DNA of 64,000 nt from Oligoflexia bacterium. GTDB lineage: Bacteria; Bdellovibrionota; UBA1018. How positions within the stretch are numbered: position 1 is the stretch's first letter; each line of letters begins with the position of its first letter. Below the pieces are notes generated by a model. The model ran no database searches and was not told where the DNA came from. It saw nothing but the letters and a program-made list of their open reading frames with translations. The position numbers and the translations under genes were made by a program. The stretch covers positions 288,001 to 352,000 of the forward strand of contig CAVWVI010000001.1 in the NCBI GenBank assembly GCA_963758495.1, given 5' to 3'. Of this stretch, positions 27,432-41,399 are shown one piece after another.

Positions 27432-27951
27432 CTGAGTACTCCGATTGACGGCATGGTGGGGCTTATTTTGGCTGGTGAAACACTTACGAGAGACTTCTGT
27501 GCTGTGAGGATGGGATCGCAATCCGGCTGGCAAGGAGTGGCTATCCCGTTTTGTTTTCCCCTGGGGAAAAGGGAGTGGCACAATTGAAAGTAGGGGCAGT
27601 GAGTTATAGGGTTCTGTTAAAGTGCTTCAGTGATATTCTTCCTGAAATGTAAAGTAAACTGGCCAACCACCGTGTGTTGGTACACTTACTTTCTTTACTA
27701 CTTCGGAAACTTGGCCAGCAAGCATATGAAAAACAGAGCATATACTAAACTTTACATAAATACTAAATCTAATATCTCCGGACATCACCACGCCTCACCT
27801 CTCACTACCCCAAACCTCCAAAACAGAACAAAGCGAGGCACCTCCTCCTTGGCAAGCCGGATTGCGGTTTCGTTTTATTGCAAAGGCGTCTCTCGTAAGT
27901 GTCTCACCAGCCAAAATAAGCCCCACCATAAAGTCGCCCGGAGCGCCCCAG
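27432..27951. repeat. Gene-less element with long imperfect inverted repeats (MITE/REPIN-like)
   Basis: 27453-27494 matches the reverse complement of 27888-27929 at 41/42. Weaker similarity continues inward (CGCAATCCGGCT, AAGGAG) and outward (CTG..CTCCG..GAC). Outer ends are approximate. Confidence 0.8.
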
Positions 27952-29080: not shown

Positions 29081-30352
29081 TCAAACGTAGTTACCTACTT
29101 TGATCTCTTTTTTTACATTTATACATGTTTCTCGTTTCAAACCAGACAACTTACGACTTGCAAATCTCTTGCGAGATGCACAAGGCATAGAGGCTCTCTG
29201 TCCACGAGCGTGATTTCCCCGTCGGCCACGGGTACAGTGAATCAGAATATTTCGAGAAGCATGAACATCTCTGTCCTCACGATGAGCACACTCTGAATTC
29301 ACACAGGAAAAAATCCGATCTTTTAAACTCAGGTTTTCATTTTTAGTTCGGCATTTACGACATTCTTTCGAAGAAGGGAAAAATCGCTCTGCATAAAGGA
29401 CTTTCCCGCCTCTTTGGGCTGTCTTATATTTAATTTGTCTTTTGAACTCATGAAAGGAGATATCTGACAAAGAACGAGCAAGCTTGTGGTTTTTAAGCAT
29501 GCCAGCGGTGTTCAGATCTTCAAGACAAACGATTCCGAATTGATTGGCAACTTGGGTCGTTGTTTTATGGATAAAATCCAGACGAACATTGACTATTTTC
29601 TGATGAACTTTTGCTACTTTTTTTGCTGCTTTCTTCCTCCTCTTACTCCCCAATGTTTTGCGATGCAAAGAACGATTCTCTCTTGCTAATTTCTTGAGAT
29701 GTTTTCTAAGTGACTTCGGACCCCGAAACTTCCTCCCAGTTGATAAAGTCAAATCTGTCTCAAGACCTAAATCGCCTGCAACTGACTGAAGAGGGTTTTT
29801 ACATTTACGGTGAGGAAGTGGGGTTTCAACTTGAATGGAAATAAACCAACGATCCGCATTCCTTCCAATGGTTGCTCCTAAGACCTTCCCAGAGAATCGT
29901 AATGACTCCACTAAAGAAACTTTTCCAATGTGAGGAAGGTCTACAAATTGATCCTGAACCGAAAACTGATCATTGGAAATATAGAAGGAATCCCTAGATT
30001 TCCCCTTCTTTTTAAATCGGGGTTGCTTCGTTTTACGAGATGTCTTCTTGTTCAAATCACGAAAGTAATTTGCCCAAGCTGCCCCTAAATCGGCTAAAGC
30101 CCCTTCAGGAGCGCATTTAGTGACCTCATACATCCATGGAAATTGCACTTCCTTGAGTGAGTTGAGCTTTTTCTTTAATGCCATCCAATTCGGCCGCTCT
30201 CCCTCTTGATACTGCTTCTTCCATTCTGCCAATCCCCAGTTATAAGAAAACCGCGCTACTCCGCATGCCTTTTGAAAATACAAGACCTGCTCCTCCGCAG
30301 GGAGCATCTCAATCTTATGTGCGATCTTATAGAGTAGGGTTTGTTCGGTCAT
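29081..30352 (-). CDS. tnpB: IS607-associated TnpB RNA-guided nuclease
   Basis: RFSYNW, GDLG, LEDL, zinc finger and DRDVHA; ATGA overlap with tnpA. Confidence 0.9.
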   Translation of the reverse strand: MTEQTLLYKIAHKIEMLPAEEQVLYFQKACGVARFSYNWGLAEWKKQYQEGERPNWMALKKKLNSLKEVQFPWMYEVTKCAPEGALADLGAAWANYFRDLNKKTSRKTKQPRFKKKGKSRDSFYISNDQFSVQDQFVDLPHIGKVSLVESLRFSGKVLGATIGRNADRWFISIQVETPLPHRKCKNPLQSVAGDLGLETDLTLSTGRKFRGPKSLRKHLKKLARENRSLHRKTLGSKRRKKAAKKVAKVHQKIVNVRLDFIHKTTTQVANQFGIVCLEDLNTAGMLKNHKLARSLSDISFHEFKRQIKYKTAQRGGKVLYAERFFPSSKECRKCRTKNENLSLKDRIFSCVNSECAHREDRDVHASRNILIHCTRGRRGNHARGQRASMPCASRKRFASRKLSGLKRETCINVKKEIKVGNYV

Positions 30353-30963
30353 TCCTTTTGTACAGCCATTTCTAAAATAGTCTTCTTGTATTTTCGAAGT
30401 CCATAAAGCCGCGATGAAAAGCAATGAATGATGGACATCAAATCTTTCGTCATCTCTTGTTCTGGAGAAAGGGATTCTTGATTCATGACTGCAATCTGAG
30501 TGCCATGAAGTTTGCAAAAATGCTCAAACCATTCAAACCCAAATCGAACTAACCTATCTTTATGAGCCACAATGATCTCTGCGATCTCGCCCCGCTCAAC
30601 ACGATTCATGAGCTCAATAAAATTCTTGCGCTTGTAGTTTAAGCCTGAACCTATGTCTTCATATTTTTCATGGATGATTCTGCCCGAAGCAACACAAAAC
30701 TGCTCAACAGCTTTTTTTTGAGACATGAGGTCCGGTTTTTGGGCACTTCCCGAAACGCGCACATAACTTACGTTTATCCTTTGTTTGTCTTTCTGTCCCA
30801 CTACTTGAATATAATCTTCATGGGTATAGTATCGTCTATTCGTGGGTGTTCGCTTTGCTTGAAGAATCTTTTCACGATCCCATCGTTGGAGAGTGCCGGT
30901 CGAACGACCTATGAGTAAACCAAATTGTTTTGGGCTGTATATTTTTGTATTCAAAGCAGGCAT
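30349..30963 (-). CDS. tnpA: IS607 serine recombinase transposase
   Basis: N-terminal MerR-like HTH (TLQRWD...RRYY), YVRVS catalytic Ser, DIGSG, DRLVRFG. Confidence 0.9.
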   Translation of the reverse strand: MPALNTKIYSPKQFGLLIGRSTGTLQRWDREKILQAKRTPTNRRYYTHEDYIQVVGQKDKQRINVSYVRVSGSAQKPDLMSQKKAVEQFCVASGRIIHEKYEDIGSGLNYKRKNFIELMNRVERGEIAEIIVAHKDRLVRFGFEWFEHFCKLHGTQIAVMNQESLSPEQEMTKDLMSIIHCFSSRLYGLRKYKKTILEMAVQKE

Positions 30964-35246: not shown

Positions 35247-35397
35247 TTGTATTTCATGCTCCAGTTCCTCCATCGAACTACCGCGCTTCCGGCTTGCTGC
35301 TTGTTCACTCGCTCGCATCCCGCTCGCGCCCGGCTACGCCGGTACCGTGAACAAGACCTTAGAGAGGAAAGCATTGAAAGATAGTTATGTTTTTTTT
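35247..35397 (+). repeat. Left copy of the ~150-bp structured inverted repeat flanking the HNH gene
   Basis: 35247-35355 matches the reverse complement of 40880-40988 at 105/109. The next 42 nt align ungapped with about 10 mismatches. Confidence 0.9.
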
Positions 35398-35614
35398 AAA
35401 ATAAAAATGAATCAATCAAAGCTGAGGTAGGCCGCCATTTTTTTTGCCCCGTAAGTCTCGATTGCTCTCATTCTATTATGCATTGAACACTTTAATTCAA
35501 GATTCTCCACAGTGTTCGGTCCGCCGAAACCAAATGGAATGATGTGGTCTTGACGTCCTCCCCTGCCTAAAGGCTGGCCTTGCGGCCACCTGCCCAACGC
35601 AGGAGGGGATTCCC

Positions 35615-38600
35615 TTAAGCGACTTTCGTCGCTCTTAGCGATTCACGCCCGAATCGGAGAATATTTCTAGCTGCATTAACGTCACGATCGTGATGAGCAT
35701 GACATTCGCTGCAAGTCCACTCTCTTACCCCAAGACCACTTAGTCCGCTCGGACCTGTTTTTGTATGACAGTTCGAGCAAGTGACCGTGGAGGAACTTTC
35801 ATTCACTTCGTAGTAGTTTCCTGAATGCCTAATGGCTTTATACTTCAAGAGATTTCGGATGATTCCGAACGAAGCGTCTGCTGAACTTTTTCCACTTCCT
35901 GCTTGTGTGAACTTTCCGCTCACATTACCAACATACAAAGTGTTGGCTTTTCTTACTGCTTTTGTAGTCTCCTTATGTACATAGTCTTTCCGTTTGTTTT
36001 TAATCTTCGCGTGAATCTTCTTAACTCGTTTCTTTTTATTGGCTCGCTGCGCTGTAGCAAGCTCATCTTCGAGTTTTCTAAATTCACTGTTATTTTTTAT
36101 GAAACTTCCATCACTGAATGTCATTGAAGTCTTTAGGCCGGGATCTCCACCTAATTCTTCTATAGGGTGCTTGTGATCTATTTTTGAGACTTCACAAGCA
36201 AGATTCACGTACCAACGACCCTGAGCGTCTTGAGAAAATGAACCAGACAAGATTCGACCTTCAATCGGACGAGAGAGCCATATCTTGTAGCTATGCCCAA
36301 GGTAACAAACCCTGTGACCGTCCACTTGAATTGAATTCGCCTTGAATGGAATCCAGCCCAATGAACGCCTTGAGCCCCTAGATGTGCGCCAACGGAGCTT
36401 CCTTTTTTTGAACTGGATTCTCCGAATTACGTATTCTTCACAGATTGCCTGCACAGTTACACTATTAAGTCCAAGCTCTTGAGAGGAGCCCGAAGTCAGA
36501 TTTTTTAGGTCTATGGCTGAAAGAAATTCTCCATGATTTCGAATGGCATTGAAAGAAGTATCGTTGTCGAGTAAGGGGTAAACCTTACGGTTTACCCCTC
36601 CTCTAAGAACGCATCGTGCGAGTTTCCCCGCAATACGCTCAAGCCTCTCTGATACCCTTTGCAGGATACGGTTCACGTTGATGGAGTATTTCGTGACAGA
36701 TGGAATGAACTAATTCAAGATTGCTCATTTTATTACTGCCACCTAAACTCTTTTTGACCTTGTGGTGGACTGCCCACCCGGATTTAAAGAAAATAGGCTT
36801 TTTGCAATAAGAACAAGCTTTTTCTTGTAAGCTGTAGAGGTACATGCGGGACTTGATCGCTTGAGAACCGAGAGACATTTTTTGCTTCTGTCGATCCTCA
36901 AAGTATCGATCCCAGTCCGGATCATATGGGTTGGCTGCTGCTCTGACCTTGATATGACGGCTAATCTTAGTAGCCGCCATGTTATTTAGTTCAACGTATT
37001 CCCAGGTCCCATCCTCTGCTTTTTTCTTCCCGAAGAAAACCCAGTTCCGATCTCCATTAGTTCGGAAGTACTTTTGTTTAATCCATTTCCTGGATTTAAA
37101 GGGATGCCTTCGGTTCGACCATTTCCACAGAGCATGATAAATACTCATCGCCATGCGCTGGAAAGTTTTTGCACTACATACGTGACGATAATAATTGGCC
37201 CAACCCCTAATAAGTGGGTTGAGAAGATCAATTACAAGCGTCGGTTTTGCCTGCTTATTCTTTCGGATTATTTCCCGTATTTTATCTGACACCCTCTTCA
37301 CATTTGCTTTAGCTGGCTTTGTGATGAGTGTGCCTTTATACTTACGGAAATTAAAACCTAGGAAATCAAATCCATCCTCTATATGTGTGATCTTAGTTTT
37401 CTCTTTCGATAGCTCGAGACCACGTTCCTTCAGGAAATCTACGATCATTGGTTTGACCGATTGTTCGAGAATTTCCTTCGAGGCGCCAGTGACAATAAAG
37501 TCATCCGCATATTTGACGATGTTCACCTTGTATTTCATTATGATTCTTGGATTTGCTCTGAAGGTCGCATATAAACGACGCTCTAGGCCATCTAAGGTCA
37601 TATTTGCTATTACAGGGGATGCGATTCCCCCCTGAGGGGTCCCTTCGTTCGTTGGGTTCAGGATTTGATTTTCTATATATCCGGCTTTCAACCATCCTTT
37701 TAGAATCTTCTTTTCCATTGGAATATTATTTTCCAACCAGGTGTGATTAATTTTATCAAAGCAGGATTTAATATCTCCTTCTAAGATCCAACGTGCACTT
37801 CCCGGTTTCCCTAATGCCAGAAAACACTGTTCCATCGCGTCCTGAGTAGAACGCTCTTTCCTGAATCCGTATGAATTAGGATCAGCAGTGCTTTCTGCGA
37901 CAGGGTCCAGTCCCATGAGATAGAGAGCTTGCATCGCCCTGCATTTCATAGTTGGAATCGAAATAGGCCTTTGTCGGCCATCTTTCTTTGGAATATAGAT
38001 TCTTCGGAGTGGCTGAGGTCGATATCCACGCTGTCGAAGCGAGTATACTGCTCGCATCTTTTCCTCGGGTGTTTTCCATATTTTCTGGTCAACACCTGGG
38101 GTATTTCTTCCATCATTTTCGGTCACTCTGCGCACTGCCAAAAGCTTTGCGTTTTGTGATCGAGTTAGTAGGTATTGGAGCGATTTAACTCGTCCCCACC
38201 TACCTTCTTTCGTTGCCTTTACGATACGTGCCTGAAGACGACTCACTTCTTGGATTGCCGAATCCCAGCTAGTGGATTCCCATTCTTTGATAAAGTGAGA
38301 GGCCGCACCAGTAGATAGTGTTTTTGAATTGCCATTTACCGTCATCTGCTTTGCCTCCTTTATCGCTTTGTCAGGTTATTTCGTAATGAGAGACCCGGTA
38401 GAAGTCAGCTCGCTTTCACGCCGGTAATTAAACCGTATTCGATTCGTTATAAATCGACTTTCGCTTTCTCTACCATCCTTTACCTACATGCCTATGGGCT
38501 CGTCTTGCGACTCACTTTCCGTTTAAGGAGGCATGTAGGCTTACCGAGTTTCGTTGTTAAAACATCAATCGATTTAGGCTCGCCCTATTCACCGACAGCA

Positions 38601-39069
38601 TTGGTCCATGATGAGAGATACAGCACAGCTCTCATTCCCAGCTGCTTGCCTTTTGGCTCAAGTCTATCAGCACCTTTGACTTGTTATGGATTACGGCGTT
38701 TATCAGGCATTCACTTATGTTAGCCCTGTCGACTATCCTAGCCCTGATCCGCTTTAGTGCTAGCAGAATTGATCTGGACTCACGTCCAAATCTAGGTAAT
38801 TGACCCAGGATACATTGTCAGAGTGCTTCATACGGATTGTTACCTCTCCGCATTTACTCCTAGGATACTTGCTATGGAAGGCAAGGTTACATCGCCTCGC
38901 AGGCTTATAACAATTTTAGCAACGACTTTCCTCGTCGCACGCAGTAATTCCACACAAAATTAACAGCACGAGCAAGCTGGTCGAGTCTGTTTAATTCTGA
39001 GGCGTCCTTGATCCTATAGCGTAAGGTTGTTGTCACCTTGTTAGGATCTTTTTCCTTTCTCTTAGCCAT
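35615..39069 (-). CDS. tnpB: TnpB split by a group II intron (exon 1 39069-38941, exon 2 36565-35615; ~359 aa spliced)
   Basis: Phase-0 join ...NFVWNYC|NDTSFNAI...; GGDPGLK, zinc finger CSNC/CSEC, HDRDVNAARN. Confidence 0.9.
36566..38940 (-). mobile_element. Group II intron (2375 nt, IIB/chloroplast-like class)
   Basis: 5' end GTGCG at 38940. Domain V GAGCGTATTGCGGGGAAACTCGCACGATGCGTTC at 36640-36607. Domain VI hairpin GGGGTAAACC..GGTTTACCCC with bulged A. 3' end AC at 36566. Confidence 0.93.
36639..38345 (-). CDS. ltrA: Group II intron reverse transcriptase/maturase with C-terminal HNH endonuclease
   Basis: TPGVD, SYGFR, GDIKSCFD, GTPQGG, YADD, GWANYY, CxxC...HH...N...H; GGAGG RBS. Confidence 0.95.
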   Translation of the reverse strand: MTVNGNSKTLSTGAASHFIKEWESTSWDSAIQEVSRLQARIVKATKEGRWGRVKSLQYLLTRSQNAKLLAVRRVTENDGRNTPGVDQKIWKTPEEKMRAVYSLRQRGYRPQPLRRIYIPKKDGRQRPISIPTMKCRAMQALYLMGLDPVAESTADPNSYGFRKERSTQDAMEQCFLALGKPGSARWILEGDIKSCFDKINHTWLENNIPMEKKILKGWLKAGYIENQILNPTNEGTPQGGIASPVIANMTLDGLERRLYATFRANPRIIMKYKVNIVKYADDFIVTGASKEILEQSVKPMIVDFLKERGLELSKEKTKITHIEDGFDFLGFNFRKYKGTLITKPAKANVKRVSDKIREIIRKNKQAKPTLVIDLLNPLIRGWANYYRHVCSAKTFQRMAMSIYHALWKWSNRRHPFKSRKWIKQKYFRTNGDRNWVFFGKKKAEDGTWEYVELNNMAATKISRHIKVRAAANPYDPDWDRYFEDRQKQKMSLGSQAIKSRMYLYSLQEKACSYCKKPIFFKSGWAVHHKVKKSLGGSNKMSNLELVHSICHEILHQREPYPAKGIREA

Positions 39070-39120
39070 TTTTCGCTTGGGCTTTATCATCAACATTTGC
39101 ACTTACGATTACATTGGTCT

Positions 39121-39594
39121 ATGACAGTGTCAATGAGAAATATTAAAAGCCCAAAGAATAGTCCTGAGGCTATAGCTAAGCGAAAAACACCAGGAATTAG
39201 GCATGGACGCCATTGCGTATTTCTGATGCATGTGCATTTAGTATTTGTAGCCAAATATCGCAAAAAATTATTTACGAAAGAAATTTTAAATTTCATGGAA
39301 GAGATATTTAGAGACGTTTGCAAGGACTTCGATGCTGAGCTAAAAGAATTCAATGGTGAAAGTGACCACGTTCATCTCTTAATTAACTACCCATCCAAGA
39401 TTGCAGTCTCAAACTTAGTTAATAGCCTGAAAGGGGTTTCATCTCGACATGTACGGAAAAAGCAATTTCCTTCACTCCACAAATATATTTGGATGGATGC
39501 TCTTTGGACCCCAAGCTATTTTGCTGGATCATGTGGCGGTGCTCCTCTGGAAGTCATCAAACAATACATTGAACAACAGAAACCACCACACTAA
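39121..39594 (+). CDS. tnpA: IS200/IS605 Y1 HUH transposase
   Basis: HLVFVAKYR, ESDHVHLL (HUH), LKGVSS, KQYIEQQ. Start codon uncertain. Confidence 0.92.
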   Translation: MTVSMRNIKSPKNSPEAIAKRKTPGIRHGRHCVFLMHVHLVFVAKYRKKLFTKEILNFMEEIFRDVCKDFDAELKEFNGESDHVHLLINYPSKIAVSNLVNSLKGVSSRHVRKKQFPSLHKYIWMDALWTPSYFAGSCGGAPLEVIKQYIEQQKPPH

Positions 39595-40837
39595 AGTGCG
39601 GACGCCTTATATCCCCGGGATGAACCCCGGGGTTTTACGGCGCGTGTGATAATGAATTGCATGCGAAGATCCGCATTTTCGACCACTCGTGGGATCGACA
39701 TACTGACATTTTCCTTCATCACGATAATAAACAGTACGTTTCACTTCGGCTGGAATATATCGCGTCGGTGCTTGAGTTGGAGCTTCATCAGCCGTAGCTA
39801 TAGGCTCTCCCACGACTACCGTAGCACTTTGATTCGTCTTCACTTTTTCTCCGACGCCGGAGCGGACCTCACTTAGTTTGTGCGTAGACTTAGGCTCCGA
39901 CTTTTGAGGGAGTTTAGGCTTGAGTTTCTCCAGGCTTAACTTTGCCATTTCAGTGAACAATTCACTCAGCGTGAGATGAGGGTATTTGTTTGCGAGGAGG
40001 CCCCTCACTTCTTCCAATTGATCCAGCAGCGTCTGATCCGCCACAAAACGAACTTCAGAATGGGTCGGAGTCACAGACTTGATCTGGTCAGGCTTTTGAA
40101 TCGCAAGCGGCTGTGAAGAGTGTTGTATCAGTTCCCTTTCCGCTTCCCGACTGGATTTATTCATTAAATTTTCGAGAATCTCTTTTTTCTTCTCCAAATC
40201 AATTGGCTTTTTCAACTCCGCTTCCGTTTGAAATAGTCTTTGTGCCATCGCCGCGTTTGAAAGAGTGATTGTTCCTTTTTCAATTTCGTTTTCGACTTCT
40301 GGCATTTCAGTCAATAATATCATCGCACTTATTCTTCTCTGAGCCGCCCCGTCTGAAAACCCCAATTCCCGAGTGACATATTTAAAAAGCGACCGATAAC
40401 CCAGCGTCGCAAAAAGACGCCTCCGATAGACTTCCTGAAGATGATGCAGAACTTCTAAAGTAATTTTTCTCTCCTCTTCTGCGAGAGATTTTATTTTCCG
40501 TAAGAGTTCTTCATTATTGAGTTTGCGAATTGAATATGTCATCGATATACTTTCTGTGTAAATTTTCTTTCAATCACCCTAACACAGGTTTTAAAACTCA
40601 AAAATTACGCACGAGGATTGGGTATTGCTGATTTTTTAATATTCTTTATAGCCCTGCGCCAAACTCCGCCAGGAAAGGCTCCTGAAGTCATAAGAAAGGC
40701 TAAAAAAAGCATTTTAGAAAGGTTTGGCTATTGTCTAAATTGCATTTGAGATTTTGTTCAAAACAGTGTCAAGCCCGAAATCGAATCTTGGTAACTAAAG
40801 TAGCTTTTTTCTCCGACGCCGGAGTTTGCCTTTAGCA

Positions 40838-40988
40838 AAAATAAACAAAACCATCCTTCAATACCTTCCTCTTCATGGCCTTGTTCACGGTACCGGCGTA
40901 GCCGGGCGCGAGCGGGATGCGAGCGAGTGAACAAGGAGCAAGCCGGAGGCGCGGTAGTTCGATGGGGGAACTGGAGCATGAGATACAA
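40838..40988 (-). repeat. Right copy of the ~150-bp inverted repeat
   Basis: Reverse complement of 35247-35397. Confidence 0.9.
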
Positions 40989-41020
40989 GTAAGTAGTTCC
41001 TTTAGGGCTGTTGACAAGCA

Positions 41021-41399
41021 CTACATTTTTCCCTTGGAACGTAACAGATCAGCTGGAGTTTCACCGTCATCATCTTTTGCGTTCAATGATTCAGGATATT
41101 TCTTCGCTAGAAATTCAATAATATCTAGCTTTCCTTCCCGTGCAGCTAAATGAGCTCAATCATATATGTAGCTGCAAACCCGTAGCAGGTGCCAAAATCC
41201 AACTGATTGAAATCTTGAGTAGGTTTATATCAATCTTCTATATACTCGCTTCGTCTTTAATTCGCTTTTCTTGTCCTTGAGGACACCCAGCAGACTGTGC
41301 AAAAGCCTGCAAAGGAGGCATTAAAGGCGAAGCTAAAGCAAGGAGACCTAACAAGGGGGAGCAGAAGGGCGGCGGCGTGAGGGGTCTAAGCTTGGGCAT
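41021..41399 (-). pseudogene. Secreted ankyrin-repeat protein remnant
   Basis: Signal-like start MPKLRPL...LLGLLALASP and C-terminal AHLAAREGKLDIIEFLAKKYPESLNAKDDDGETPAD; the middle is disrupted. Confidence 0.6.

Follow-up and report, generated by a model that had tools for sequence, protein, structure and literature searches.

A group II intron within an IS605-group element within an HNH-family gene of an Oligoflexia bacterium

The locus described here lies in a 64,000-nucleotide (nt) stretch of the genome of an Oligoflexia bacterium (GenBank assembly GCA_963758495.1, contig CAVWVI010000001.1, positions 288,001 to 352,000), which we call the window and in which positions are counted from its first letter. 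The genome is a 3.66-Mb assembly of five contigs (named C1 and so on), and the window corresponds to C1:288001-352000. At this locus, a gene of an HNH nuclease family is interrupted by an insertion sequence (IS) of the IS605 group, and the tnpB gene of that IS is in turn interrupted by a group II intron, a nesting that was confirmed by coordinates and by in-silico joins. All three layers read on the minus strand. The outer gene is divided into a 5' part of 298 codons (39649..40542) and a 3' part of 45 codons plus stop (35412..35549). Between them, the IS (35550..39648) measures 4,099 bp with the intron and 1,724 bp without it, and the intron (36566..38940; 2,375 nt, GTGCG...AC), which has the same sense as tnpB, separates a first tnpB exon of 43 codons (38941..39069, with a start possibly up to 11 codons further upstream) from a second of 316 codons (35615..36565).

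Deleting 35550-39648 in silico produces a 343-codon open frame that joins at AIHY|DHIIP, and deleting 36566-38940 produces a stop-free TnpB of 359 amino acids that joins at WNYC|NDTS. An open frame alone is weak proof of the IS boundary, as around one-third of the 49 offsets tried also leave the frame open; the boundary is fixed because the register of HNH homologues, the TTAT and TCAA ends common to relatives of the IS and an identical right-end copy elsewhere in the genome define it. In HNH homologues, the Asp-His (DH) motif falls precisely at the start of the outer gene's 3' piece. The tnpB exon join is in register with 65 of 68 intact TnpB homologues (identity up to 79%; mostly WNYCN, with some variants), the remaining three being gapped there. 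The layer order, the exact junctions and both in-frame joins, as given in a preliminary description of this DNA, are therefore borne out by homologue register and IS end motifs. The four open reading frames (ORFs) of the nest contain neither stop nor frameshift, and catalytic motifs are kept in TnpA, TnpB, the reverse transcriptase (RT)-HNH protein of the intron and the outer HNH protein. Of the three stacked nucleases named in the preliminary description, each has its motifs, and the list has to be extended by TnpA, a fourth DNA-cutting enzyme; also absent from that account are 151-nt inverted repeats that surround the outer gene.

The ends of the IS are of the IS608 type, with subterminal hairpins, tetranucleotide guides, a target at the left end and no target duplication, and its active strand is the minus strand. 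The left end (39613..39648, minus strand) carries AAAA (39633-39636) as its guide tetranucleotide, with a 7-bp hairpin after it, and abuts the TTAT target motif (the target-adjacent motif, TAM) at 39649..39652. The right end, which is shared with a predicted omega-RNA scaffold (35550..35700, minus strand; folding z -2.35, 5' limit approximate), contains the guide GAAT (35609-35612), then a branched hairpin, and terminates in TCAA (35550-35553). We compared these features with relatives of the IS at 28 metagenome loci, where the left end was detected in 10 and the right end in 17. Nine of the ten left ends combine TTAT with the guide AAAA, and the tenth (locus L098) combines TTAC with AAAG, changing guide and target together; all 17 right ends share the TCAA terminus. 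On the plus strand, tnpA (39133..39594) encodes a Y1/HUH transposase of 153 amino acids (PF01797, E 2e-42; NF033573 above cut-off) with HUH and a C-terminal Tyr, motifs that agree with 9/9 relatives shown. It is divergent from tnpB, which overlaps the predicted right-end RNA. The second right-end copy is a 93-bp stump at C3:1437424-1437516, 100% identical to the window copy, with a flank that diverges one base past TCAA; it adjoins a 347-amino-acid ORF that we take to be an IS110 transposase. Elements of this kind have an active strand that is biased toward the lagging-strand template, and the minus strand, which is both the active strand and the G-rich strand at the locus, fits that bias. Given its TTAT target, we presume the IS to resemble IS609.

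The second tnpB exon holds the RuvC residues D184, G256, E299 and D338, which are invariant in 68/68 TnpB homologues, together with four zinc cysteines, and the protein is recognized as TnpB by Pfam and scores above the NF040570 cut-off. It departs from the family consensus at 6 of 180 conserved columns (relatives' median 3, 90th percentile 10). In RuvC-II, Gly replaces the usual Glu and an alternative Glu lies 43 residues further on, a pattern that matches the rearranged-RuvC type at the level of motifs. TnpBs with such rearranged sites are described in PMC10691335 and are shown to be active in PMC10530073; the TnpB2 or RIIr-5 proteins of these studies, such as TvTnpB, have the same Glu-to-Gly change and an alternative Glu around 45 residues on. 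By analogy with PMC10055086, the guide of the window TnpB is predicted at 35530..35549 (minus strand), that is, in the first bases of the 3' part of the HNH gene. A search for TTAT followed by at least eight guide bases found no match elsewhere in this genome.

The intron was matched by Rfam models RF02012 and RF00029, the latter placing its 3' end exactly at 36566 (E 8.5e-8), and an Rfam domain-I model matches 38741-38886. The domain V triad and bulge and domain VI are present, with domain V/VI pairing kept. One intron ORF (36639..38345, minus strand) encodes a 568-amino-acid protein in which Pfam finds RT, maturase and HNH domains, with YADD at residue 279 and a TIGR04416 score of 360 bits (cut-off 300); from this domain make-up we presume the class to be CL1 / IIB1. 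Exon-binding sites (EBS) were placed by eye in 38608..38690 on the minus strand (EBS2 38686-38690, EBS1 38619-38624, EBS3 38608) and position-checked against a related intron at locus L028. They pair with the intron-binding sites (IBS) at 11 of 12 positions in a IIB pattern (EBS2 5/5, EBS1 5/6, EBS3 1/1), a score that is reached at 894 of 7,324,416 genome positions (1.2e-4). The statement in the preliminary description that splicing restores the mRNA is consistent with such a spliceable-looking intron at its apparent cognate site. No RT lies within tnpB in the 28 IS relatives, and the intron site is empty in all 21 of them that were scorable. These 21 pair with the intron at 9-11 of 12 positions and are therefore possible homing targets. 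An IStron reading was rejected, as the intron lies wholly inside tnpB and its boundaries are not those of the IS ends.

Introns also occur in other transposons of this genome and in the same IS family. Two copies of an IS607-type element (C3:6-4644 and C3:1301164-1305801), 99.87% identical with different flanks, carry a different group II intron in tnpB; one of the two begins at the end of a contig. The RT of this intron (C3:1068-3480) is 35% identical to that of the window intron and the spliced tnpB frame has 501 amino acids; in one copy, exon 2 of tnpB has lost one base. Its presence at two sites indicates either that the element moved loaded or that the intron homed twice. An intact-looking IS607 element (resolvase and TnpB) lies in the window itself at 29081-30963 and recurs, at 99.6% identity, at C2:121926-123872. 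In L098 (1184-3055; also in L099 and L096), the tnpA of a member of the same IS605 family is interrupted by an RF01999-type intron just past the catalytic Tyr. Finally, in a Chloroflexia genome, the related intron of L028 (3345-5767) interrupts an IS607-type tnpB directly after a YNW motif; it starts with TTGCG and pairs at 6/6 EBS1 positions.

The 5' part of the outer gene now runs 13 codons into the IS and encodes 311 amino acids that end before the DH motif, which is held by the 3' part together with NL..C..HN. Pfam finds a weak HNH match in the 3' piece (PF01844, E 0.003), and the same C-terminal domain is matched by 25 of 32 members of the outer family. We presume this family to be like the DUF222-HNH or REP13E12 units of Actinomycetota, which are multi-copy genes with a helical N terminus, a C-terminal HNH and hairpin repeats; by contrast, DUF222 has no match in this outer protein and matches just 4/32 family members weakly (best E 1.9e-4), and the hairpins are likened by description. 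Of the four clusters that the Atlas lists for the outer protein, three consist mostly of Bdellovibrionota, and DUF222 is present in 23% of the members of one of the four. A structural model of the homologue P0122 (mean pLDDT 84) gave no Foldseek match at E 0.001; its best likenesses (Z 6-7) are ParB/KorB DNA-binding and HNH folds, with a weak ribbon-helix-helix likeness as well. As these modelled likenesses are within the range of common arrangements, we treat them as a lead only.

Among 26 genomes of the family, 25 contain matches to the outer family, 1 to 63 each, so that the range is 0-63 per genome (counts of matches, not of copies). In a quick tree, rows group by genome (21 label changes compared with 33.2 after shuffling, reached in 0/200 shuffles), and an 11-member clade falls in one genome (G017). 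The tree holds 50 of 79 candidate rows; a motif filter dropped 29, including both copies of a paralogous 1,590-bp unit that occurs twice in the genome of the window (C1:198998-200587 and C1:255246-253657; 99.3% identical, with unrelated flanks). This unit carries an HNH-family gene and has imperfect inverted ends. An 8-nt direct repeat flanks the first copy; none is present at its twin or at the window locus, where the outer edge abuts another repeat. The G017 copies (L145-L158) share only a TTGAC promoter-like box, a leader of around 170 nt, which may be a structured RNA, and the ORF, and their similarity stops at the stop codon. Among viral contigs, 14 pattern matches to the HNH family were obtained and none was confirmed.

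In the window, the outer gene is bounded by an upstream arm of 151 nt (40838..40988), which is 91% complementary to the downstream arm (35247..35397) and holds a branched hairpin. Inverted arms of at least 41 nt are present at 5 of 13 family loci in this genome and at 0 of 150 random spans, and all eight arm homologues in this genome lie within around 500 nt of a family gene. The inner hairpin shows double changes at 12 of 19 pairs, which 0/500 shuffles reach, in an alignment of nine sequences, two of them the window's own arms; whole arms fold no better than shuffles (z -0.3 to -1.4), so the support for structure comes from this covariation. Apart from the IS, the HNH gene is the only gene between the arms, and ORF and domain scans found no transposase or recombinase there. 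Immediately outside the upstream arm, and abutting it, lies a truncated copy (40989..41025) of an abundant palindromic repeat. Across the genome, this repeat measures around 100 nt and begins sharply on its 5' side (a 50-nt query gives 94 blast rows), and a TnpA query found no RAYT-like or second Y1 transposase in the genome. A second family of arms forms inverted pairs without an HNH gene at window positions 27453-27929, C1:352630-353271 and C3:1306040-1306640. At C3:1215364-1217511, direct repeats of 420 nt surround a 383-amino-acid ORF, presumably a Fic protein.

We consider it probable that the nest was built by sequential insertions through known routes and that its splicing and excision layers are antagonistic, the mechanisms being those of published families. 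At the start, an HNH-family gene, probably a dispersed selfish gene, would have stood between two inverted structured arms. An IS605-group element would have inserted in single-stranded form behind TTAT, immediately ahead of the HNH Asp-His, and so have severed the gene from its active site. By reverse splicing, tnpB would have received a group II intron at a site able to pair with EBS1-3, although the IS may instead have arrived already bearing the intron. Because TnpA and both IS ends lie outside the intron, the IS could still excise and move with its passenger, whereas TnpB would be made only after splicing. The 3' part of the HNH gene itself would supply the TnpB guide, directing cleavage of the resealed HNH allele, and recombination would then restore the IS. 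In PMC10055086, TnpB cuts the scarless donor joint, and the element is re-installed and so retained; by analogy, a working intron and TnpB would keep the outer HNH gene broken. If splicing were lost, loss of the IS would become possible and the HNH gene could return.

Several observations weigh against this sequence of events. Assembly searches found no second full copy of the IS, no second copy of the intron and no empty allele, and TnpB relatives in 40 related genomes amounted to one weak match, with no empty allele of the site among those searched. The use of TTAT as the TAM of TnpB is an assumed premise, EBS1 contains one U.U mismatch, and neither the promoter scan (10 sites against 9.6 expected) nor the terminator scan exceeds chance. 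At 25 of 241 conserved columns, the intron RT differs from the consensus of its 118 relatives, more than any of them does (median 4). Its best matches are 52-58% identical and it is the outgroup of its set, which may be the whole cause of the divergence; decay is the other reading. An intact-looking TnpB may also fail to cut, as the TnpB of Helicobacter pylori IS608 was inactive in PMC10055086.

The preliminary description held that both interruptions are reversible and that every layer could still be active. Scarless excision of IS200/IS605 elements, on which it relied, agrees with PMC10055086, and each layer does have intact-looking motifs, but by analogy the layers are expected to oppose each other. 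Nor are the two interruptions reversible in the same way: splicing acts on each transcript, whereas excision alters the DNA and TnpB cuts the resealed joint (PMC10055086). In its strongest form, with both interruptions freely reversible and all three nucleases expressed from the locus, this idea strikes us as very doubtful. The catalytic motifs kept in four proteins would fit it, as would an outer HNH protein that is off the family consensus at only 1 of 42 conserved columns; scarless excision occurred in at most 0.7% of cells for another element in an Escherichia coli assay (PMC10055086), and poor splicing would make TnpB scarce, allowing excision products to survive. However, excision is a heritable DNA change and no switch, its product would be removed by TnpB, and an intact sequence is also what a recent insertion would leave. 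The assembly has no empty allele. We give similarly little credence to a dead pile-up in dispensable sequence, with at least one layer no longer working, or to mis-assembly. The presence of just one intron copy and one full IS copy and the diverged RT are compatible with a dead pile-up, as are the 1-base deletion in tnpB of one IS607 copy and the reduction of the only other trace of the IS to a 93-bp stump; yet the four ORFs are free of stops and frameshifts, domain V/VI pairing is kept, and the stump is 100% identical and the IS therefore moved recently. Motif-exact junctions would be hard to produce by mis-assembly, and the locus lies on a 578-kb contig.

Two further explanations concern the outermost and innermost layers. 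The preliminary description called the outer gene a host HNH gene, a label that does not suit it, as its family varies in copy number and shows signs of mobility; judged from its sequence context, it is probably not a host gene but a dispersed selfish gene. Whether the outer gene and its inverted arms together form a mobile element, leaving a stack that contains no host gene, is in our view evenly balanced, and such an element is compatible with sequential, antagonistic insertions. The variable number of matches per genome, the clustering by genome with the 11-member G017 clade, the near-identical 1,590-bp pair in unrelated flanks, the arms at family loci but not at random spans, the proximity of all arm homologues of this genome to family genes and the hairpin covariation all argue for it. 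On the other side, inverted arms were found at 0 of 69 scored loci of other genomes (55 + 14, with four short-flank loci left out of the score), so that the arms as a family-wide trait were rejected for the sampled genomes, and the arm profile matched 0 of 83 loci there. Clear arm homologues in other genomes number three, only one of them beside a family gene. Moreover, a target-site repeat accompanies just one member of the near-identical pair, the unit encodes neither a transposase nor a recombinase, an empty site of the outer unit was not found, arm pairs without an HNH gene suggest that the arms are perhaps a separate repeat, and each genome represents another genus, so that clustering by genome is partly expected. 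It is a more tentative and rather doubtful proposal that the outer layer represents an undescribed class of mobile element of Bdellovibrionota-type bacteria, in which a lone gene for a helical or ribbon-helix-helix-like DNA-binding and HNH protein, with no transposase, would spread through the genome as a 1.5-1.8-kb unit between structured inverted arms or, in other lineages, as a unit of promoter, leader and ORF. If this were true, the locus would be three selfish elements deep, and splicing of the innermost would decide, through TnpB, whether the outermost returns. As for the intron, it is unlikely to belong to a lineage specialized on the conserved WN motif of tnpB. In favour of such a lineage, the IS family as a whole conserves the intron site, with 10-11 of 12 pairs formed in 19 of the 21 empty relatives, and the L028 intron, whose EBS1 is perfect, is offset by a single codon within the corresponding motif of an IS607 tnpB. 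Against this, just 1 of 80 related RT loci (48-57% identical, many on short contigs and without close kin) is within a tnpB, none of the 28 IS relatives carries the intron, and all 21 empty relatives share the EBS1 mismatch at -3, which one would not expect a specialist to have kept; specialization of the intron clade on tnpB is thus unsupported as sampled.

Group II introns in IS605 elements and tnpB have been published (PMC4810608, PMC2882425), and in this respect the nest is a clean example that changes little. PMC4810608 reports RT-HNH introns inside IS605 elements, the same arrangement as here, and the insertion in its Fig. S9 may be at the same site; the present locus differs in its host lineage, its rearranged-RuvC tnpB, its mapped EBS/IBS pairing and its third, outer layer. 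In Thermosynechococcus elongatus, TeI3 family F4 introns occupy a conserved site in ISEL1, of the IS200 family, and form twintrons, and insertion into other mobile elements is named as a route of proliferation (PMC2882425); F4 introns are ORF-less and present in three copies, whereas the window intron has its own RT and a single copy. PMC7923331 describes such elements in clusters, not nested. The IS608/IS605 elements with restorative homing by TnpB (PMC10055086, PMC13565253) share divergent tnpA and tnpB, terminal hairpins, tetranucleotide guides, the lack of target duplication and a guide taken from the right flank. By contrast, the window element has a TTAT target, a TnpB that would need splicing first and a branched right-end hairpin. 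IStrons (PMC4227781, 10.1101/2023.11.20.567912) likewise unite intron and IS, splicing and TnpB; there, the intron extends over the complete IS and its splicing mends the host mRNA, whereas the window intron lies within tnpB and would have no effect on the outer gene. No account of the outer HNH family as a mobile element was found in the accessible, mostly open-access literature.

The interest of the locus rests mostly on this outer family and on the chain from splicing to retention. The locus offers a compact natural test of whether splicing controls TnpB-driven transposon retention, and supplies a putative TnpB of the rearranged-site type for which a TTAT motif is predicted. More is at stake in the outer family: should its multi-copy HNH genes prove to move in the absence of any transposase, they would constitute an element type that is apparently undescribed in the literature searched. 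Beyond the upstream arm, a gene start with repeats of around 102 nt, which we take to be ankyrin repeats, lies at window positions 41021-41200, and paralogous arrays are found at C3:1222727-1227857.

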